Source of the DNA: Escherichia coli
Lineage (GTDB): Bacteria; Pseudomonadota; Gammaproteobacteria; Enterobacterales; Enterobacteriaceae
Reading direction: 5' to 3' (one strand)
Length of the DNA: 64,000 nt
NCBI RefSeq assembly: GCF_003018115.1
Contig: NZ_CP027457.1
Each line of letters opens with the position of its first letter. Positions within the stretch are counted from its first letter, which is position 1. The translations under genes were made by a program, and so were the position numbers. Shown here one piece after another: positions 7,031-47,171 of this stretch. The notes below the pieces were generated by a model. The model saw nothing but the letters and a program-made list of their open reading frames with translations. It was not told the origin of the DNA and did not search any database.

Positions 7031-7131
7031 TTGCCAGATGCGACGTGAACGCCTTACCCAACCTACAAAATCTTGCAAAATCAATAAATTGCAGGAACGA
7101 TGTAGGCCTGATAAGCGTAGCGCATCAGGCA
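7031..7131. repeat. REP (repetitive extragenic palindromic) elements
   Basis: tgccagatgcgacgtgaacgccttacc and gtaggcctgataagcgtagcgcatcaggc resemble the E. coli REP consensus. Confidence 0.6.
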
Positions 7132-7140
7132 ACTACGTTT

Positions 7141-11323
<4,183 letters not shown>

Positions 11324-16595: not shown

Positions 16596-17348
16596 GTTGT
16601 CACCCTGGACCTGGTCGTACATTTAAGAAATTAAATCATTTCAACTTGGTTGTTAACGCAACCTGTATTTTGTTAACGCTGCGTTACGATGGAAAGTATG
16701 TCTGCGGAAATATTTTTAATAACTCACCCGCGCGTTGTATTTTTCTTTTTTTGTTCATACCAAAGTATTAAAACCCACGTAAATACGCTGTTATCTACGC
16801 AAAAAATATTTTGTTTTCTTTTAAATCTCCGTTTTCCGCTAGCAAAAAACACCAGACAGTCATTCTTCTTGCCCGTCGCTGATTGCTGCGATATGTCTTG
16901 CGCACAAGCCGTGACAAACCTCGTCTTTTTGCAGTAAAAAATTGTCCACGGAGGTGTGGAGAAAAAACAAGAACGTTTTACATGACGAAAGGACTACACC
17001 GAAATATTTTTTATATGCATTATTAGTAAGTTATCACCATTTGTATGATTTTTTAAAATTGTGCAATAAAAACCAAATGTACAACTTTTCTATCATTTCT
17101 AAACTTAATAAAACCTTAAGGTTAACATTTTAATATAACGAGTTACATTTAGTTACATGTTTAACACTTGATTTAAGATTTGTAATGGCTAGATTGAAAT
17201 CAGATGTAATCCATTAGTTTTATATTTTACCCATTTAGGGTTGATTTATTACTACACACAGCAGTGCAACATCTGTCAGTACTTCTGGTGCTTCTATTTT
17301 AGAGGCAGCTGTCAGGTGTGCGATCAATAAAAAAAGCGGGGTTTCATC
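16596..17348. promoter_or_regulatory. csgBAC / csgDEFG divergent intergenic control region
   Basis: 753-bp AT-rich non-coding region between divergent csgB and csgD starts; individual sites not mapped here. Confidence 0.7.
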
Positions 17349-22892: not shown

Positions 22893-22980
22893 GGTGAGGT
22901 GTCCGAGTGGCTGAAGGAGCACGCCTGGAAAGTGTGTATACGGCAACGTATCGGGGGTTCGAATCCCCCCCTCACCGCCA
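22893..22980 (+). tRNA. serX: tRNA-Ser (anticodon GGA)
   Basis: 88-nt sequence with 7-bp acceptor stem ggtgagg / cctcacc, long variable arm, anticodon loop ctGGAaa, TPsiC ggttcgaatcc and 3' CCA. Confidence 0.93.
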
Positions 22981-35976: not shown

Positions 35977-36189
35977 CAGCTTTTCCTTACAGAGGGTGAA
36001 TAAAAAAGCCGGTACCCACAAATGTGGATACCGGCAGGTACAAAACAGCATGGTCAGATAAAGTGGTTTTTCCCGGACATAAATGCTTCCCCTCTCTCAT
36101 CCGCCAGAGAAGTATCAGTCCGTTGTGTGCAATTCCGTTCTGCATGATGAAGAGATTCAGCTGCCTTTTCGCAGGCCATTAACCACCAT

Positions 36190-36232
36190 AAACGATCGAT
36201 AGTAACGATCGATACCTGTTTTATCGATCGTT
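36190..36232 (-). promoter_or_regulatory. flu phase-variation switch (three Dam GATC sites)
   Basis: GATC at 36194-36197, 36207-36210 and 36226-36229 in aacGATCgatagtaacGATCgatacctgttttatcGATCg, upstream of flu. Confidence 0.75.
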
Positions 36233-37221: not shown

Positions 37222-37384
37222 ACATGTATTCCCGGTGAAAAAAGACAAAACCCCGCGCACCGGAAAGATGGCGGGGGATTCACGGAGATAATATCTGTCT
37301 GAAATTATTTGAAATGCAGGTATATGCAGCTAATTTGTATCAGCTTATTGGTACAGTACTAAACCTCATCTGACAGTCCGCTCT

Positions 37385-37399
37385 GTGCCAGGAGCGGAC
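37385..37399 (+). repeat. 15-bp direct repeat, copy 1 (gtgccaggagcggac)
   Basis: Identical 15-mer recurs at 38896-38910; this copy lies inside the hairpin gtccgct-N10-agcggac. Confidence 0.5.
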
Positions 37400-37502: not shown

Positions 37503-38228
37503 TCAGTCCTTAAGTTTATTCATAGAAAGCCGCTCTTGGCGTTTAAGCTCATTTAAAGTGAAAAAAGCACATTTATTAGATAAAATATAAATAGTTCCTA
37601 CTAACCGATGTAAGCGCCTCATTTTTTCGGGCATAGAGAATTCAGCATTTTTGACAAACATTAAAGAATCAACCCCAGCAGAGAACATATATTGTAAACT
37701 TTCCATATTAAAAGCCTCTAGTGGATTTACTTCGTTAATATCAATACTATTAACAGACCTCTCTATTTCGAGGTAATCTTCACTTGTCATTGAATAGTCT
37801 ATTTTATGAGCGAATTTATTGCGGATAGAATTCAGCTTAACTAAAGAATTTGCAATTGAGAGAGGTAAACCTAAAGCAACACAGATCTCCAGTTTTGGAG
37901 TAAAATATCGTGATGGTTTAACGAACTGCTCAGTACCAGGCTTCCTAACATTGTTGATGAATACTTCCAAGAAATTCTCAATCAATAGGCTAAGTCTTAG
38001 CAAGACTGATGCTTCGTCATTTATACTTAGTAAAGGTGCAAATTTTTCTGCGTCAAGAAAGAAACCGAGGTCATTATTAATCGCTACATATCCAGTTAGA
38101 TTGTTATTTGACTTCATATTCATAAAAACCTTATCTTGTATATTAGCGGCATATTGTACCATAAATTGAATCGTGGTTTGTTCTAAGAATGGACACAAGA
38201 ACTTCCTCTCCTCACTCATAAGAGACAA
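37503..38228 (-). CDS. AT-rich hypothetical protein with HEPN-like Rx4H motif
   Basis: Track ORF of 241 aa (TTG start); likelier start ATG 38123 (MNMKSNNN..., AAGG RBS); motif LNSIRNKFAHKIDY fits the HEPN Rx4-6H signature; AT-rich codon usage. Confidence 0.45.
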   Translation of the reverse strand: MSLMSEERKFLCPFLEQTTIQFMVQYAANIQDKVFMNMKSNNNLTGYVAINNDLGFFLDAEKFAPLLSINDEASVLLRLSLLIENFLEVFINNVRKPGTEQFVKPSRYFTPKLEICVALGLPLSIANSLVKLNSIRNKFAHKIDYSMTSEDYLEIERSVNSIDINEVNPLEAFNMESLQYMFSAGVDSLMFVKNAEFSMPEKMRRLHRLVGTIYILSNKCAFFTLNELKRQERLSMNKLKD

Positions 38229-38230
38229 CC

Positions 38231-38267
38231 ATACTCAAATCTCCCACATTGCAGGAGATTTGAGTAT
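38231..38267. promoter_or_regulatory. perfect 14-bp inverted repeat in the divergent control region
   Basis: atactcaaatctcc (38231-38244) and ggagatttgagtat (38254-38267) separated by 9 bp; right arm contains the recombinase RBS (aggag) and first two bases of its ATG. Confidence 0.5.
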
Positions 38268-38868
38268 GAACACGTCACCGTGGAACAAAGACCGTATCAT
38301 CGCCCAAAAAAGACCACTTCAGATATCTCATATCTGGGAGATCCGAATCCGGCTTGAACTGGAAGGTAAAACGCGCGATTTAGCTCTGTTCAATATGGCC
38401 CAGGACAGTAAGCTTCGAGGCTGTGATCTGGTCAAACTCAAAGTATCGAATGTGGCATATGGTAGCTCGGTTTCAAGCAGAGAAACGGTGTTGCAACAAA
38501 AAACCGGTAACCTTGTGCAATTCGAGATAACCAAAGGGACAAGAGAAGCTGTTGCTGCATTGATAAAGCTTGGCAATTTGCACAGTAAAGACTTCTTGTT
38601 TCGGTCTCGGGTCGGAACTAATCGGCACATATCAACCCAGCAATACAGCCGAATTTTTCATGGGTGGGTAGAAAAGCTTGGTCTCGAAGCTTCGCTGTAC
38701 AGCACACAATCCATGAGAAGAACAAAACCTTACCTAATCTACAAGAAAACCAAGAATCTCCGGATCATCCAACTTCTGTTGGGTCATAAGAAACTGGAAA
38801 GCACGATCCGTTATCTGGGCATTGAAGTCGATGATGCGTTAGAGACCTCTGAATCGATTGAAGTCTAA
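38266..38868 (+). CDS. short (200 aa) tyrosine recombinase, FimB/FimE-like catalytic-domain-only architecture
   Basis: ATG 38266 with AGGAG RBS; Arg-I in SKLRGCDL, C-terminal LLGHKKLESTIRYLG with candidate catalytic Tyr; no N-terminal core-binding domain. Confidence 0.65.
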   Translation: MNTSPWNKDRIIAQKRPLQISHIWEIRIRLELEGKTRDLALFNMAQDSKLRGCDLVKLKVSNVAYGSSVSSRETVLQQKTGNLVQFEITKGTREAVAALIKLGNLHSKDFLFRSRVGTNRHISTQQYSRIFHGWVEKLGLEASLYSTQSMRRTKPYLIYKKTKNLRIIQLLLGHKKLESTIRYLGIEVDDALETSESIEV

Positions 38869-38895
38869 GGTTGTCAGAGCTGCAATAGCAGCCCC

Positions 38896-38910
38896 GTGCC
38901 AGGAGCGGAC
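38896..38910 (+). repeat. 15-bp direct repeat, copy 2 (gtgccaggagcggac)
   Basis: Identical to 37385-37399; the two copies bracket the HEPN-like gene and the short recombinase. Confidence 0.5.
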
Positions 38911-39026
38911 CTAACTAAGTTCATACAACATTGATTATTGAAGATTAGGTCAGAAATAAATACTTTATTTTGATAATTTAGTTACGTTAGAACACCGCAA
39001 TGTACAACGTAAAAATGAGGAATAAT

Positions 39027-40388
39027 ATGACTCGGAGTGAAATAAACGTCTGGGATGAGAGAAGAGGTACCAATAGTCATCGAGTGGAGGAGATTCGATC
39101 TGAAGCTCAGCACGACCTTTCTCGATTGATTCACTCGTCTGCTTTCAGACGATTACAATCCAAAACACAGGTTCTTGGTCTGGGTGAAAGTGATTTCTAC
39201 CGCACACGACTGACTCATTCTATGGAAGTCGCACAAATCGGTTCAGGTCTTCTTGCTAAGTTGAAAATAAAATATAAAGGTAAAGAGCAAGAGCAATTTT
39301 TACCAGATAACGCTCTTATGCAGGCAGTATGTCTCGCACATGATATTGGACATCCTCCATTTGGTCACGGCGGTGAGGTAGCTCTTAACTACTGTATGCA
39401 GGATTACGGTGGTTTTGAAGGAAACGGTCAGACGCTTCGCATTCTCTCGAAACTAGATAAGTATACCTTAGAACACGGACTCGATCCTACACGCAGACTT
39501 CTGCTAGGCATACTGAAATATCCGGTTAAATACTCGGAGCTAGTGGTTACAAAAGACAGAATCCCGGTCACTATCGGATCACCAAACTGGCTCTTTAAGT
39601 CATCTGATTTTAAACCTCCAAAATGCTATCTAGATTCAGAATGCGATGTTGTAAAATTTGCTCTCTCACCATTTACTGAACAGGATCGGAGGCTTTTTAC
39701 TTCCGTTGAAGATGGTCAAACTAAATCCGATCATAAAAAAGCTTCTTATAAAGCTCTCGATACAACTATAATGGATCTTGCCGATGAAATTTCGTATTCG
39801 CTGCACGATTTGGAGGATGCTATTTCTCTCGGAATGGTGACACGAGAAATGTGGATGGAGCATTTCAGTGAACATGAAACCCTATTTACTAACTGCCATG
39901 GAAAAATATTTTCCGAAACATGCCAATCTGTAGCGGATAGCCTTTTTGGTGAAAGTTACAAGAGAAAAGAGTGCATCGGGATGCTGGTTCACCTGATGAT
40001 TACAAGCGTTGAGCTTATTACAAAGAATCCAGCATTCGAATGTGGCATGCTCAAATATAATGCGGTCCTTCCGGAAGCGGTCGAAGCACTACGGTTGAAA
40101 ATTTTCAAACTGGTCAAAAATAAAGTAATTAAGCATGAAAATGTACAGCAGCTTGAATTCAAGGGACAAAAGTTGATTGTTGAGCTCTTCGGTGTGTTGG
40201 CGAACGATCCGTGTCGGTTTCTACCTGCCTCAACGAGGGAAATTTACGAGCGGCAGACTAGCTTAGACAAGAAGGCTGGTATGCGAGTCATTTGCGACTA
40301 TGTTTCAGGGATGACTGATGACTATGCAACAAAGCTTTATGAGAAGATCCTTATTCCACGCAAAGGGTCTATTTTTGACCATCTCTAA
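39027..40388 (+). CDS. dGTPase-family HD-domain triphosphohydrolase (accessory paralog)
   Basis: 453 aa from ATG 39027 (GAGG RBS); motifs RTRLTHSMEVAQIG, LAHDIGHPPFGHGGE, C-terminal CDYVSGMTDDYA; AT-rich, not at the core dgt locus. Confidence 0.8.
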   Translation: MTRSEINVWDERRGTNSHRVEEIRSEAQHDLSRLIHSSAFRRLQSKTQVLGLGESDFYRTRLTHSMEVAQIGSGLLAKLKIKYKGKEQEQFLPDNALMQAVCLAHDIGHPPFGHGGEVALNYCMQDYGGFEGNGQTLRILSKLDKYTLEHGLDPTRRLLLGILKYPVKYSELVVTKDRIPVTIGSPNWLFKSSDFKPPKCYLDSECDVVKFALSPFTEQDRRLFTSVEDGQTKSDHKKASYKALDTTIMDLADEISYSLHDLEDAISLGMVTREMWMEHFSEHETLFTNCHGKIFSETCQSVADSLFGESYKRKECIGMLVHLMITSVELITKNPAFECGMLKYNAVLPEAVEALRLKIFKLVKNKVIKHENVQQLEFKGQKLIVELFGVLANDPCRFLPASTREIYERQTSLDKKAGMRVICDYVSGMTDDYATKLYEKILIPRKGSIFDHL

Positions 40389-41372
40389 CACGGTAAGAAT
40401 GATACTCTGAGTTCAATTGACCTATAAACATTAACCAAGGCATCTACCAGGGGGGATATCAAATCCCCCCATTCTGAATTTGTTCATGCAGAATCGGTGA
40501 ACGTTCTCATCTGAGCGTTAAACGCCAATAATCATTGATCTACACTGATCATTAATACACCTTAATACCATTAGCGTCTTACTCCGTTATGAGAACAAAC
40601 GCGAACTTCCGCTGTTCGCTCAAAGCAGACCATTCGCTCAGTTAACGCATCAGTGTCGTGCTAGAAGTAGAAGTGGTTAACAACAATGTGAGTTAATCAA
40701 CGGAGAGCAGGTCAACTCTAACCTGTATCAAAAAACAAATGTGTCATAAAGATGCCGCATGCCTTAATTTGAGTATAATTGAGACGGAAGTAGACGGTTT
40801 ATGACTAGATATTGTTGATATATAGCTATTTGAAGAGTTGTAGCGCAAGCGCATAGCCCAAACTAATAACGCTACGCCCCTTATCAAAGAGCGGCAACGA
40901 TGCACAGCTCGCACGAGACAATATTCGCACAAGAAATCAGGTTCGGAAATAACCAGCTCTGGCATGGCGGGGAGAGTATCAATGGTCAGGCTTTCGGTAA
41001 GATGCGGCGGGATGAGGTCGGCGTGGGTTACAGCAGTACAAGGTCGCCCACAGAGGGTAAGCCACAGCGTGGAATCCTCGGTTTCTATCAGGGATTCGGC
41101 GAAGCGGGCGCAGTTGTCGACCAAGACGATGAAATCCATTGTGGCATTATAAGGGAACGAACAATAGATCGAGTAAATCGCAGTCAGGGACAAGGATTGT
41201 AGTCATAGAGAAGTCTCCTGTAACGGTTTTCAGGAGGCTAATCCCGACGCCTGATTTCGCAGGCGCGGAAAGAGAGGATACTGCGACCATTAATCCGCCA
41301 CAAGTCATTTACGTACATAAATCGCGCAGTCAGATCCGACTCCCACTGTAGTTCTTGAACTTGATACCACAT

Positions 41373-41389
41373 TTAGCTAATTTAGCTAA
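41373..41389. promoter_or_regulatory. tandem 8-bp palindrome TTAGCTAA x2, operator-like
   Basis: ttagctaa at 41373-41380 and 41382-41389, each self-complementary, about 25 bp upstream of ATG 41415. Confidence 0.4.
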
Positions 41390-41414
41390 ATTATCCAGTA
41401 TACCAGTGGTTGCC

Positions 41415-41660
41415 ATGAATATGAATGAAGATGAGATTTATCGCCATATCCGGCAGGCACTTTCCAGTGCGCCGCGTAACCAGTACACCGTCGAGCTACA
41501 CCTGCAAATGATTAAATATGCCGACGAACTGGAACACATTACGGCAAAAGCCTTTTGCGAAGGCACCGGTCTGAGCCAGAGCCTCGGTACCGAATTCAGC
41601 AAAATGCGTAACTTAACCCGTCGGTTGAAGGCCGCCGGTCTGAATACCGATCTGCTGTAA
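41415..41660 (+). CDS. small hypothetical protein upstream of hsdM, possible DNA-binding regulator
   Basis: 81 aa from ATG 41415 (MNMNEDEIYRHIRQALSS...); track ORF starts at TTG 41355; ends 40 bp before hsdM; function not recognised. Confidence 0.4.
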   Translation: MNMNEDEIYRHIRQALSSAPRNQYTVELHLQMIKYADELEHITAKAFCEGTGLSQSLGTEFSKMRNLTRRLKAAGLNTDLL

Positions 41661-41699
41661 CCGACTTACGGCAGATTATCGCGCAAAACGAGATATTTA

Positions 41700-44138
41700 A
41701 TGGCTATCAAAAAAACCGAACTCTATTCTTCCCTGTGGGCAAGCTGCGACGAACTGCGTGGCGGGATGGACGCCAGCCAGTACAAAGACTATGTACTGAC
41801 CCTGCTGTTTATGAAGTACGTTTCCGATAAGTATAAAGGCGATCCTTACGGGATGATCGTGATACCCAAAGGAGCCAGCTTTGACGATATGGTTGCGCTG
41901 AAAAATGACAAAGAGATCGGCGACAAAATCAACAAAATCATCCACAAGCTGGCGGAAGAGAACGGCCTGAAGGGCGTCATCGACGAAGCCGACTTTAACG
42001 ACGAAGATAAGCTCGGCAAAGGCAAGGAAATGATTGACCGCCTGAGCAAGCTTGTCGGTATCTTTGAAGGGTTAGATCTCTCCAGCAACCGGGCCGAAGG
42101 CGACGATCTGTTGGGCGATGCCTATGAATATCTGATGCGTCACTTCGCAACCGAATCCGGCAAGAGTAAAGGGCAGTTTTACACTCCGGCGGAGGTGTCA
42201 CGTATTCTGGCGAAGGTGATTGGTATTACTCCCGATACGCCGCGAGATGCAACGGTTTATGACCCAACCTGTGGCTCTGGTTCGCTGCTGTTGAAAGTGA
42301 ATGATGAAGCCCGGCGCGGACTATCGATTTTCGGCCAGGAGATGGATAACGCTACCAGTGCACTGGCGCGGATGAACATGATTCTGCATAACAATGCCAC
42401 CGCGAAAATCTGGCAGGGTAATACGCTGAGCGATCCGCAGTGGAAAGAGGCGAACGGCAAACTGAAAGCCTTCGATTTTGCCGTGGCGAACCCGCCTTTT
42501 TCCAATAAAAACTGGACCAACGGGTTGACGCCGAAAAAAGATCCGTTTGAACGCTTCGGCTGGGGCATTCCGCCGGAGAAAAACGGCGATTATGCTTTTT
42601 TGCTGCATATCATTAAAAGCCTGAAAAGTACCGGCAAAGGCGCGGTGATCCTGCCCCATGGCGTACTGTTTCGCGGTAACGCCGAGGCAAATATCCGTGA
42701 AAATCTAATCAAGCAGGGCTATATCAAAGGCGTTATTGGTTTGCCGGCCAACCTGTTTTACGGCACCGGCATCCCGGCGTGCATTATTGTGATTGATAAA
42801 GAGCACGCCCACAGCCGCAAAGGCATTTTTATGATCGACGCCAGTCGGGGCTTTATCAAAGATGGCAACAAGAACCGCCTGCGTAGCCGAGATATTCACC
42901 GCATTGTGGACGTGTTCAACCATCAGCGAACGGTGCCGGGCTACAGCCGGATGGTGCCCTCCAGCGAGATCGCCGGAAATGATTACAACCTGAATATTCC
43001 TCGCTATATCGAGAGCGGCGAGCCGGAAGATTTGCACGATCTGACCGCGCACTTACAGGGCGGTATTCCAGCACGCGATGTGGATGCTTTGCAGGATTAC
43101 TGGCGGGTATTCCCTGCCCTGCGCAACGTGCTGTTTGCTGACGACCGTTCCGGTTACTGTCGGGCGCAGGTGAACGCGCAGCAGGTGAAACCAACCATTC
43201 TGGCACATCAGGAGTTTAAGGATTTTGCCACCCGCAGCCTGCTACCGTTTAAAGCGTGGGTGAAAGAGGCAAGTCTGGAAGAGATTCGCAAAGGTGATAA
43301 ACCCAAAGCGCTGATCCACGATATCAGCGAGATGTTGCTTGTGCAGTACGCCAACAGTGAGTTGCTGAACAAGTACAGCGTGTACCAGATCCTGATGGAT
43401 TACTGGGCTGATGTCATGCAGGACGATGTGTATGTGATTATGCAGGATGGCTGGCAAGCCGCCGCGCAAATCCGCGAGCTTCAACCGGTGAAAGGCAAAG
43501 ATGGCAAAAACATCTGGAAAGAAACGCACGATTTCGAGTTTACCAAACAGCGCTACAAGGCCGATGTGCTACCCCGTTCACTAGTGGAAATTCGCTGCTT
43601 CCCGGAACTGCTGGATACGTTGAACCGCGCGCAGGAGCGCAGTGAAGAAGCCAGTCGTCAGCTAGCGGAACTCATCGAGGAGCAGGCAGGGGAAGAGGAT
43701 CTGCTGGCTGAGGCGAAGAACGATAAAGATAAGGTGACGCAAAAGCTGGTGAATGCCCGTCTGGCACAGTTGAAGAAAACCCCTGCCGACCCAGATGAGC
43801 TGGCAGTGCTGAACCGCTGTCTGGCGCTGATTAAGGCCGAGGCCAGTGCGAAAAAAGCGCTGAAAGCCGCACAGGAAGCGTTGGATCGAGCGGTATTTAA
43901 ACATTATCCCACGCTGGATGAAACAGCGATTAAAACGCTGGTAGTGCAGGATAAGTGGCTGGCAACGTTGCAGGCAGGAATCAAGGCGGAGATTGAGCGT
44001 ATTACCCAGCAACTGGCGTCGCGCGTAAAGGAGCTGGAAGAGCGTTATGCTGAACCGTTGCCAGCGCTTGAAGCCTCCGTTGAGGCGTTGAGCGAGAAAG
44101 TGGCCGGGCATTTGCGGGCGATGGGGCTGGAGTGGTGA
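41700..44138 (+). CDS. hsdM: type I restriction-modification N6-adenine DNA methyltransferase subunit, long form
   Basis: 812 aa; HsdM N-terminal domain, SAM motif DPTCGSGSLL, catalytic NPPF (VANPPFS); about 300-aa C-terminal coiled-coil-like extension. Confidence 0.9.
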   Translation: MAIKKTELYSSLWASCDELRGGMDASQYKDYVLTLLFMKYVSDKYKGDPYGMIVIPKGASFDDMVALKNDKEIGDKINKIIHKLAEENGLKGVIDEADFNDEDKLGKGKEMIDRLSKLVGIFEGLDLSSNRAEGDDLLGDAYEYLMRHFATESGKSKGQFYTPAEVSRILAKVIGITPDTPRDATVYDPTCGSGSLLLKVNDEARRGLSIFGQEMDNATSALARMNMILHNNATAKIWQGNTLSDPQWKEANGKLKAFDFAVANPPFSNKNWTNGLTPKKDPFERFGWGIPPEKNGDYAFLLHIIKSLKSTGKGAVILPHGVLFRGNAEANIRENLIKQGYIKGVIGLPANLFYGTGIPACIIVIDKEHAHSRKGIFMIDASRGFIKDGNKNRLRSRDIHRIVDVFNHQRTVPGYSRMVPSSEIAGNDYNLNIPRYIESGEPEDLHDLTAHLQGGIPARDVDALQDYWRVFPALRNVLFADDRSGYCRAQVNAQQVKPTILAHQEFKDFATRSLLPFKAWVKEASLEEIRKGDKPKALIHDISEMLLVQYANSELLNKYSVYQILMDYWADVMQDDVYVIMQDGWQAAAQIRELQPVKGKDGKNIWKETHDFEFTKQRYKADVLPRSLVEIRCFPELLDTLNRAQERSEEASRQLAELIEEQAGEEDLLAEAKNDKDKVTQKLVNARLAQLKKTPADPDELAVLNRCLALIKAEASAKKALKAAQEALDRAVFKHYPTLDETAIKTLVVQDKWLATLQAGIKAEIERITQQLASRVKELEERYAEPLPALEASVEALSEKVAGHLRAMGLEW

Positions 44139-45456: not shown

Positions 45457-46103
45457 ATGACTACAGCGCCAGCCTCAATCCGCAAAAAGCCCTGATCTGG
45501 CGTATCGTCCATCGGGACAATATCCCGTGGATTCTGGACAATGGTCTGCACTGCGGCAACAGCCCGGTGCAGGCTGCTAACTGGATCAATATCGGCAACC
45601 CGGAGCTTATCGGCAAGCACGCCGGACATCCGGTACCTGTCGGGACGGGCGGGACACTGCGTGACTATGTGCCATTTTATTTTACCCCCTTCTCGCCAAT
45701 GCTGATGAACATCCACAGCGGACGTGGCGGCATTAAGCAACGCCCCAATGAAGAGATCGTTATTCTGGTCAGCAGCCTGCGGCACGTGGCAGCACACGAC
45801 GTGCCCTTCGTGTTTACCGACAGCCATGCTTACTATAACTGGACCAACTACTACACCAGTCTGGATAGTCTGGACCAGATCGACTGGCCCATTTTGCAGG
45901 CACGGGACTTTCGCCGCGATCCAGACGATCCGGCTAAATTTGAACGCTATCAGGCAGAGGCGCTAATCTGGCAACACTGCCCGATCTCGCTGCTGGATGG
46001 GATAATTTGTTACAGCGAAGAGGTCAGGTTACAATTAGAACAATGGTTGTTTCAGCGTAATCTAACAATGTCCGTTCACACACGGGCTGGATTGGTACTT
46101 CTC
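45457..46103 (+). pseudogene. darT: DarT-like (DUF4433) ssDNA ADP-ribosyltransferase, N-terminus disrupted by frameshift
   Basis: ATG 45457 with AAGGG RBS reads [12 protein letters not shown] then stop; one extra A in the A5 run 45484-45488 would give [34 protein letters not shown]... continuous with track ORF 45567; candidate catalytic Glu in [10 protein letters not shown]. Confidence 0.6.
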
Positions 46104-47171
46104 ATGATCACATATACACAAGGCAATTTACTGGACGCACCGGTGGAAGCTCTGGTGAATACGGTTAATACCGTCGGTGTCATGGGGAAAGGCATCGCGT
46201 TGATGTTTAAAGAGCGCTTCCACGAAAATATGAAAGCCTATGCCCTCGCCTGCAAACAAAAGCAGGTGATCACCGGCAAAATGTTCATTACCGAAACCGG
46301 GGAACTGATGGGACCGCGCTGGATTGTTAATTTTCCGACCAAACAGCACTGGCGCGCTGACTCCCGCATGGGGTGGATTGAAGATGGCTTACAAGACTTA
46401 CGTCGATTTTTGATTGAAGAGAACGTGCAATCCATCGCCATTCCACCGCTGGGCGCAGGCAACGGTGACTTGAACTGGCCGGACGTTCGGGCGCAGATTG
46501 AATCTGCCCTTGGCGACCTTCAGGACGTTGATATCCTGATTTACCAACCAACTGAAAAATACCAGAACGTTGCCAAAAGCACTGGCGTAAAAAAGCTCAC
46601 TCCCGCCAGAGCCGCCATCGCTGAACTGGTGCGTCGCTACTGGGTATTGGGGATGGAGTGCAGCCTACTGGAAATCCAGAAACTGGCCTGGCTGTTACAA
46701 CGCGCCCTTAAGCAGCATCAACAGGACGATATCCTCAAACTGCGGTTTGAAGCTCACTATTATGGCCCCTATGCGCCCAATCTGAACCATCTGCTTAATG
46801 CGCTGGACGGCACCTATCTTAAAGCCGAGAAACGCATCCCGGACAGCCAACCGCTGGATGTGATCTGGTTTAACGATCAGAAAAAAGAACACGTTAATGC
46901 GTATCTGAACAGCGAAGCCAGAGAGTGGCTACCGGCGCTGGAGCAGGTCAGCCAGTTAATTGACGGCTTTGAATCGCCGTTTGGTCTGGAGCTGCTGGCA
47001 ACCGTAGACTGGTTGCTGAGCCGTGGCGAATGTCAACCAACACTGGATTCCGTTAAGGAAGGGCTGCACCAGTGGCCTGCGGGCGAACACTGGGCCAGCC
47101 GTAAGTTGAGGCTGTTTGATAATAATAATCTGCAATTTGCCATTAACCGCGTAATGGAGTTCCATTGCTGA
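46104..47171 (+). CDS. darG: DarG-like macrodomain antitoxin
   Basis: Starts [39 protein letters not shown] with [10 protein letters not shown] macrodomain motifs plus a C-terminal domain; in this sequence in frame with the DarT-like region, no intervening stop. Confidence 0.7.

Follow-up and report, generated by a model that had tools for sequence, protein, structure and literature searches.

A non-coding composite interval between an anti-phage dGTPase gene and the RRDM defence module in a CP4-type island of Escherichia coli

The interval studied here is positions 40389-41354 of a 64,000-nt stretch of Escherichia coli DNA (contig NZ_CP027457.1 of assembly GCF_003018115.1), which we call the window. 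It lies between an anti-phage dGTPase gene and a type I restriction-modification (R-M) defence module, and its parts resemble several described systems. In the immunity region of phage P4, the promoter PLE is followed by seqA, the CI RNA with seqB, seqC and the first translated genes. Processed C4 RNA pairs with the boxes in seqA and seqC and shuts the operon off, as is established for P4 and P1. The same RNA architecture, with leader hairpins of the a1/b1 type and antisense pairing that overlaps the ribosome-binding site (RBS) of the first gene, is found in IsrK of Salmonella Gifsy-1 and in the c4-icd-ant systems of phages P1 and P7, whose Rfam models belong to the same clan; these systems are intact and control anti-repressor or antiterminator genes. 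The IsrK-like and C4 RNAs are the seqA and CI RNA of the P4 literature, and in the P4-like prophages of S. Typhi such IsrK-like sequences have an important function (Barquist et al., PMC3632133). On the other side of the interval, the RRDM island of enteropathogenic E. coli (EPEC) E2348/69 is transcribed from a promoter with the -35 element TTGAAC, a functional -10 element AGCTAATTT and three TTTAGCTAA repeats to which the repressor RptR binds; two of them suffice for repression (Zhang et al. 2025, PMC12255303). The DNA further upstream of that promoter is not discussed in the same paper.

The window resembles P4 in the order and strand of a promoter, a two-hairpin leader with boxes and a first open reading frame (ORF). 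In contrast to P4, its antisense RNA gene, leader terminator and seqC are deleted, its first ORF comes from another family and is a pseudogene, and genes for replication and helper exploitation do not follow. Whereas the Gifsy-1 and P1/P7 systems are complete, the window keeps only the target half, with nothing functional downstream. Taken comprehensively, we think that the interval is a non-coding composite, produced by successive recombination in the variable cargo region of a CP4-type island, and that it hides no gene; we put the probability of this reading at roughly 85%. Its features, from left to right, are as follows.

39027-40388: coding sequence of the anti-phage dGTPase (RefSeq).
40389-40609, plus strand: non-coding 3' flank of the dGTPase cassette, found at 97-100% identity behind dGTPase genes in 16 E. 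coli genomes.
40450-40470, plus strand: G-rich hairpin GGGGGGAT-ATCAA-ATCCCCCC, 61 nt past the dGTPase stop.
40608-40629: 'type 1' 22-bp palindrome TCCGCT GT TCGCTC AA AGCAGA, the seam at which the dGTPase cargo meets the RRDM-linked module.
40630-40910: non-coding segment, a constant companion of the ORF156 remnant and the RRDM module, present only in a lineage of about 250 genomes.
40650-40671: degenerate 'type 2' palindrome TCAGTGTC GTGCTA GAAGTAGA, 42 bp from the type 1 site, start to start; the unit's tail reaches to about 40722.
40911-41206, minus strand: pseudogene of a conserved 156-aa ORF ('ORF156'), which comes after the C4 RNA where the P4-type island module is intact.
41213-41286, minus strand: seqA/IsrK-like (c4-a1b1) two-hairpin leader, hairpins at 41266-41247 and 41246-41231.
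41213-41229, minus strand: deletion scar, a lone copy of the 17-nt repeat AAACCGTTACAGGAGAC, of which intact copies have two.
41241-41235 and 41225-41216, minus strand: C4-target boxes TTAGCCT and CGTTACAGGA of the leader, the latter overlapping the Shine-Dalgarno sequence AGGAG.
41275-41303, minus strand: candidate PLE-like promoter TTGTGG-17-TATCCT, placed by its position relative to intact copies and P4.
41355-41389, plus strand: predicted RRDM promoter with RptR operators; -35 TTGAAC at 41355-41360, -10 AGCTAATTT at 41375-41383.
41372-41380 and 41381-41389, plus strand: RptR operator direct repeats TTTAGCTAA.
41421-41660, plus strand: coding sequence of rptR (HTH_73), which closes the gap on the right (as annotated by RefSeq in E. 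coli 1303, whose sequence is identical here; Pfam HTH_73, 4.9e-29; PMC12255303).

The next coding sequence after the dGTPase stop at 40388 begins at 41421 and not at 41355 according to the E. coli 1303 annotation, and the true gap therefore runs from 40389 to 41420. A preliminary description, made from the sequence alone, had reported a roughly 1-kb AT-rich gap that ended at 41354 and held only short overlapping ORFs and no convincing gene. The gap is real, although its right border at 41420 makes it slightly longer, and it contains no intact coding sequence; its longest ORFs, of 149 aa on the minus strand (with a TTG start) and of 100 aa on the plus strand, are antisense to each other. The candidate ORFs and ORF156 gave no match in Pfam, PHROG and NCBIfam searches. 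The AT richness was not borne out, since the GC content of the interval (46.1%) is above that of the dGTPase gene (41.9%) and below that of the window (49.8%), with hsdM at 53.0%. Only the first 200 bp are AT-rich (39.8% GC), and they resemble the dGTPase gene to which they belong. A conserved protein-coding gene, which the description had named as the finding that would speak against it, was not recovered, and the conserved family is recognisable only as a pseudogene. Its suggestion of gene remnants proved right for 40911-41206 on the minus strand, a frameshifted and truncated copy of the enterobacterial ORF156. That of a junction between acquired modules was right as well: the first ~220 bp go with the dGTPase cassette and the rest with the RptR/type I R-M/DarTG module (about 250 genomes). 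The small RNA that it had also proposed was partly correct; the IsrK/seqA-like leader of a C4/CI antisense-RNA system is kept, but the antisense RNA gene is deleted.

The two modules and their seam

We compared the interval with 5,426 complete E. coli genomes by megablast and blastn. The whole interval was present in just five of them, and the part from 40590 onward in many more (megablast); 40590-41354 was found full-length in 247 genomes (blastn). In contrast, 40389-40600 occurred in 16 genomes, each time behind a dGTPase gene (blastn). In the lineage of about 250 genomes the right-hand segment stays linked to the RRDM module at 90-95% identity, and in every sampled genome it adjoins the order HTH_73-hsdM-hsdS-darT-darG-hsdR-M48, while the DNA on its left varies. 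All of this lies in a CP4-type island that also carries genes for antirestriction, DUF932, Ag43/Cah and YeeP-like GTPase proteins. The part 40590-40910 is confined to this lineage (blastn), and within it 40630-40910 carries indels of 1, 2 and 16 nt between lineages. Against 50,697 phage records, 40590-41354 gave no match (blastn).

The dGTPase gene and its 3' flank, with the hairpin, also stand in a Rac-like lambdoid prophage of strain S40 between replication and nin-region genes (L007), and, at 94% identity, in a Klebsiella contig that carries lambdoid replication genes (L008). In the alignment, the homology of the flank stops at about 40609 in S40 and at about 40633 in the Klebsiella contig. 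Six lineages are nearly identical up to the palindrome at 40608-40629 and unrelated past it. The ungapped identity among six islands was 33% on the cargo side of this site, 92% in the site itself and 96% on the module side. In the window, the left half of the site is like the Klebsiella dGTPase flank and the right half is like the RRDM-linked lineage. That is, the two halves match different parents, which places the parental switch in the centre of the palindrome. An inverted repeat at 40601-40619 (GCGAAC-N7-GTTCGC), which the terminator scan found terminator-like on the minus strand, was rejected; it is not conserved in sister lineages, its fold is no better than those of shuffled sequences, and the overlapping TCCGCT/AGCRGA palindrome is preferred. 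The imported dGTPase cassette, with 40389 to about 40609 as its 3' untranslated flank, is joined to the next module inside 40608-40629, through either short-homology or site-specific recombination.

The hairpin of the flank had been placed 2 nt too far to the right in the preliminary description; it does exist, at the position listed above. The 61-nt RNA 40440-40500, which contains it, folds at -22.8 kcal/mol (z = -2.3 against shuffled sequences). The window holds 35 perfect stems of at least 8 bp with loops of 3-8 nt, partly nested and amounting to roughly 20 distinct hairpins, and the G-rich hairpin alone is statistically not exceptional there. It is kept with 7-bp stems in both the S40 and the Klebsiella copies, and it therefore belongs to the dGTPase cassette. 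Our rule for an intrinsic terminator was a GC-rich stem, a loop of 3-8 nt and at least five T within 8 nt, starting 0-2 nt past the stem. The stem (8 bp, six of them G-C) and the 5-nt loop pass this rule and the tail ATTCTGAATTTGTT fails it; the scan made no call because the T-tract is weak. The hairpin is probably the 3'-end or a terminator-like stem-loop of the dGTPase transcript, where it most likely defines or stabilises the 3' end.

At the other end of the gap, the window shares with EPEC the same -35 element, -10 element, TTTAGCTAA repeats containing TAGCTA and the order rptR-hsdM-hsdS-darTG-hsdR-M48, but it has two operators where EPEC has three. Looking for at least two 9-bp TAGCTA repeats within about 60 bp upstream of rptR and overlapping the -10 element, together with TTGAAC, we found all of these by sequence. 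Thus 41355-41389 appears to be the RptR-repressed promoter of the RptR-type I R-M-DarTG-M48 module, with two operator repeats. It is the sole part of the interval with a demonstrated function, and this was demonstrated in EPEC. The number of TTTAGCTAA copies varies, with two in the window and in most sampled genomes and three in EPEC E2348/69 (L017), and this variation could tune the sensitivity of repression. As a separate observation on this module, the annotation of the identical sequence in E. coli 1303 marks darT (window 45492-46107; L001 17193-17808) as frameshifted, with darG intact, and in this island the DarTG toxin may be inactive.

The P4-type leader and the ORF156 remnant

The part of the window from 40911 to 41286 is about 80-82% identical to loci beside thrW, pheV or asnT, which are annotated as an 'ash family protein' and a 156-aa hypothetical protein and which adjoin integrase genes or remnants and variable defence cargo. 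In the thrW loci, Rfam matches above gathering stand in the same strand order, isrK (68 bits), C4 (72 bits) and then the 156-aa ORF; phage P4 shows the identical order, isrK (60.8 bits) and then C4 (74.9 bits). In intact islands ORF156 is followed by an HTH_35 (Ner/SfsB-like) protein and then by an Integrase_1 tyrosine recombinase.

A permissive Rfam scan of the window gave overlapping minus-strand matches at 41279-41205 to c4-a1b1 (38.2 bits, E = 2.8e-7) and to isrK (39.2 bits). The gathering scores are 50 bits for isrK (RF01394), 46.7 bits for c4-a1b1 (RF03163) and 45 bits for C4 (RF01695). The leader thus does not reach membership of isrK; the two 5' hairpins fit, and the terminator segment has 7 nt instead of 22 nt. 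To the c4-a1b1 model it aligns over the full length, 1-53, and the threshold of that model is likewise missed by phage P4, at 44.1 bits, and by the intact island copies, at 43.8 bits. Judging from its 93% identity to the leader of the intact locus L003, which scores 68 bits, the window leader is a truncated member of IsrK/seqA by descent. No C4 antisense RNA was found at E<=1 in 38500-42500 or at the gathering score in the whole window; in intact relatives the C4 RNA scores 71-75 bits.

The local alignment with L003 clarifies what was lost. Window 41286-41213 corresponds to L003 9567-9496, on the seqA side, and window 41229-41193 corresponds to L003 9332-9297, on the seqC/RBS side; L003 has the 17-nt sequence AAACCGTTACAGGMGAC at each of these two places. 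What is missing from the window is thus a stretch of about 180 bp between two direct repeats, comprising the leader terminator, the C4 gene and seqC. The 17-nt repeats are the C4 target boxes themselves. In the C4 RNA of L003, the exposed loops at positions 60-66 and 44-53 are complementary to TTAGCCT and CGTTACAGGA, respectively. For this comparison exact complementary words were used, because RNAduplex of the whole C4 molecule with the leader, which assumes full unfolding, was uninformative (z ~0).

On this evidence 40630-41303, on the minus strand, is the fossil of a P4-type immunity operon, which when intact would consist of the promoter, a seqA/IsrK-like leader, a terminator, the C4/CI RNA, seqC, ORF156, HTH_35 and Integrase_1. 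Recombination between the two 17-nt repeats removed the terminator, C4 and seqC and fused the seqA leader to the RBS of ORF156. The candidate promoter at 41275-41303 was missed by a generic promoter scan, and its position suggests a PLE-like promoter. In pairwise comparison among lineages the leader diverges by 5.2% and the remnant by 6.2%, which is no lower than elsewhere in the segment.

The ORF156 remnant begins with an ATG at 41206. Owing to an insertion of 1 nt (CCCTTATAATG versus CCCTT-CAATG), only 19 codons precede a stop at 41147. Once the frame is shifted, residues 16-101 match the family (P0001) at 64% identity, and the homology ends at about 40911; the C-terminal 55 residues of the minus-strand ORF of the window are unrelated to the family. 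We looked for an intact ORF of about 153-156 codons, and the frame breaks after codon 19, with homology restricted to residues 16-101. ORF156 is thus frameshifted after 19 codons and cut short after about codon 101, and none of the genes downstream of it is left. The deletion and the 1-nt insertion are common to all six representatives of the 250-genome lineage, and further lesions differ by lineage: loss of the ATG, a change of the internal start from ATG to ATA, two TAG stops, and indels of 1, 4 and 16 nt. These lineage-specific lesions exclude a conserved reading frame on either strand. Since C4 is deleted and ORF156 is dead, the remnant is unable to exert immunity, and we infer that it yields at most a short divergent non-coding transcript.

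The ORF156 family has 608 homologues across Enterobacterales and is uncharacterised. A tblastn search of phages with ORF156 found only a 1.5-kb unannotated fragment. A relation to kil/eta was rejected by sequence, and the annotated 137-aa 'cI' ORF of P4 shows no similarity. Separately, we observed that coding sequences that carry the annotation 'ash family protein' and match Phage_ASH (Pfam PF10554) overlap the C4/CI RNA gene, and that the residues matching Pfam are the translation of C4 and seqC. Much of what defines the Phage_ASH protein family may be a conserved RNA gene. The positions are as follows.

L003: 'ash' coding sequence 9288-9446 (minus strand), C4 9450-9362 (minus strand).
L004: 'ash' coding sequence 9353-9526.
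P4 (L013): 'ash' coding sequence 8168-8584, C4 8507-8420.

Boundary palindromes

Comparison with other loci shows that the joint palindrome belongs to a recurrent unit of two palindromes, with 42-bp spacing, which marks cargo boundaries. These conserved palindromes, with the arms TCCGCT/AGCGGA, delimit cargo modules in CP4-type islands to the nucleotide. Elsewhere a fixed unit separates modules, consisting of a type 1 palindrome (centre TCGCTC), 20 nt and a type 2 palindrome (centre GTGCCA), 42 bp from start to start and in one orientation; this phasing was seen in L008, L010, L020 and L021. Other cargo separated in this manner includes iron uptake, GNAT, DUF2971, DUF6650 and HEPN. The palindromes and the divergent pair of genes beside them in the window are listed below.

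37377-37398: 'type 2' palindrome TCCGCT CT GTGCCA GG AGCGGA at the other end of the cargo slot, about 156 bp upstream of the YeeP-like GTPase gene.
37503-38228, minus strand: 241-aa protein with a weak HEPN_RiboL-PSP match.
38266-38868, plus strand: 200-aa tyrosine recombinase.
Palindromes in other loci: L020 9088-12548; L021 9070-12248; L019 9088/14808; L012 1881/3508; L008 8529-8592.

The cargo slot between the two sites of the window holds the HEPN-like gene, the small tyrosine recombinase and the dGTPase. Around 37377-37398 the identity falls from 87% in the site to 72% on the outer side and to 31% on the cargo side, and the GTPase-side flank with this site is present in 2,176 of the 5,426 genomes (about 40%). 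When the exact pattern was scanned for, more than 120 loci had the type 2 palindrome, in organisms from Enterobacterales to Hyphomicrobium, Nitrosospira and a metagenome-assembled genome (MAG) of Acidobacteria; the GTGCCA-centred site is thereby spread across Proteobacteria. The E. coli copies number 1-4 per genome and are confined to islands, and Hyphomicrobium MAGs have high-copy hairpin clusters between ordinary genes of mixed orientation, in the manner of repetitive extragenic palindromes (REP) and bacterial interspersed mosaic elements (BIME). RNAalifold of nine copies of the unit gave a covariation term of about 0, none beyond palindromy.

The unit resembles REP/BIME in being made of clustered short intergenic palindromes with a shared stem that reach high copy in some genomes, but it lacks a GTAG-type head and is low-copy in E. 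coli. With attC sites it shares its place between cargo modules, its single orientation and the ability to fold into one long imperfect hairpin. In contrast to attC, it has by inspection no RYYYAAC/GTTRRRY boxes and no integron integrase, and its Hyphomicrobium copies part ordinary genes of mixed orientation.

We also observed that about 45 nt past the palindrome pair (40676-40722, containing GTTAATCAAYGGRGAGCAGGTCA) are conserved in unrelated viral and genomic loci (L159 10630-10659, L156, L153, L150 and L160), and the repeated unit is thus about 130 bp long. This tail was considered as a 5' leader and rejected, because it lies between convergent genes in one viral contig. The divergent pair upstream of the dGTPase is a further observation. 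Its recombinase belongs to Phage_integrase with weak matches resembling invertases, Xer and integron integrases, and is 90% identical to a truncated one that ends the K99S array (L020 14091-14534). The pair could be an invertase switch, or the recombinase could be the enzyme that acts on the palindromes. An exact-protein look-up of the small recombinase returned solely the same configuration. A literature search on CP4/yeeP hotspots or the palindromes found nothing relevant, and for P2/P4 defence hotspots the processes of swapping and recombination 'still need to be elucidated' (preprint 10.64898/2026.02.27.708500). From these comparisons we regard the palindromes as a physical seam and an open lead, and not as a demonstrated recombination system.

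Elsewhere in the window, Rfam gave the following matches at gathering level; the 85-nt tRNA may be the integration site of the island.

35995-36231, minus strand: IS102/IsrC RNA, beside the GTPase and Ag43 genes.
17202-17293 (plus strand), 7067-7109 (plus strand) and 22893-22977 (plus strand): the small RNAs ES056 and ES036 and the 85-nt tRNA.

Alternative explanations and meaning

Several points weigh against the composite reading given above. The isrK and c4-a1b1 matches in the window are all below the curated gathering thresholds. No source of the segment 40630-40910 could be detected, either in intact islands or in other parts of the window. What the dGTPase hairpin does, and whether the PLE-like promoter is active, are inferences. 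Both C4-target boxes are intact, and by sequence the remnant may still be regulated by, or titrate, a C4 RNA supplied in trans. Lastly, 41147-41212, which holds the RBS and the first 19 codons, is unusually conserved among six lineages (1 of 66 variable columns, 0.9% divergence), a figure that comes from a small sample of related sequences; this conservation could hint at a residual function, yet two lineages have lost the ATG.

The last two points would be explained if the leader were retained as an exapted regulatory RNA or target, that is, as an IsrK-like small RNA from the PLE-like promoter or as a decoy or sensor for the C4/CI RNAs of resident or incoming P4-like satellites, kept for the benefit of the defence island. 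The promoter hexamers, both hairpins and both C4-complementary boxes are indeed intact, 41147-41212 is the most conserved part, the segment has stayed with the RRDM module throughout its lineage, and the importance of IsrK-like sequences in S. Typhi agrees with such a role. However, the leader has lost its own terminator and thus encodes no discrete end of an IsrK-type RNA, its divergence matches that of the pseudogene with substitutions falling in hairpin 2, no C4 gene is present in the window, and physical proximity accounts for the linkage to RRDM. We therefore consider this explanation improbable. Still far less credible is a genuine small protein, encoded by the minus-strand ORF from the internal ATG at 41139 or by the plus-strand 100-aa ORF at 40900-41202. 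The NCBI annotation pipeline PGAP does list hypothetical proteins of 84-108 aa here in several genomes, the plus-strand gene is called in some assemblies, and the minus-strand ORF has its 64% identity to a real family. But the annotated ORFs vary in length and position across genomes, the domain and family searches were all negative, and the unrelated C-terminal 55 residues do not fit a member of the family; in L016 and L017, moreover, the internal start is ATA, two TAG codons lie in frame, and indels of 1 and 4 nt break all frames on both strands.

The composite reading leaves room for more than one way of joining the modules, and the palindromes at 40608-40629, 40650-40671 and 37377-37398 might be core sites of an unrecognised site-specific system of cassette exchange, served by the small tyrosine recombinase of the cargo or by a host enzyme. 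Homology breaks exactly at the site edges in about eight cargo variants, the parental switch of the window lies inside the centre, and every cargo module that lies between the YeeP-like GTPase gene and the RRDM module has palindromes on both sides. Inverted arms of 6-8 bp around a conserved asymmetric 6-bp centre (TCGCTC/GTGCCA), with the 42-bp phasing and uniform orientation, recall the core site of a tyrosine recombinase; a small recombinase of this type belongs to the cargo and is found again where another array ends, and the preprint cited above calls the swapping mechanism at P2/P4 hotspots unresolved. On the other hand, the same palindrome is a high-copy REP/BIME-like intergenic repeat among mixed-orientation genes in Hyphomicrobium, most arrays have no recombinase nearby, the sites are absent from intact ORF156/Integrase_1 islands, covariation does not go beyond palindromy, and short-homology recombination explains the same breakpoints. 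We thus regard an exchange system as rather doubtful; if true, it would be a mechanism for rapid swapping of defence genes in CP4/P4-type islands.

Returning to the composite reading, what it adds is no more than a decayed form of a system already known, and the boundary palindromes merit separate study. For annotation, it explains a recurrent 'empty' kilobase beside a well-studied defence island, where the hypothetical proteins called by pipelines are pseudogene fragments, and it identifies the sub-threshold isrK/c4-a1b1 matches as the target half of a P4-type antisense-RNA switch, orphaned by the loss of the other half. The locus also records how a P4-type module decays, with the RNA repressor gene lost when its own two target repeats recombined, leaving a fused target-RBS leader. 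Finally, the palindrome pair as a delimiter of cargo would make the swapping of defence cassettes at hotspots directly testable.

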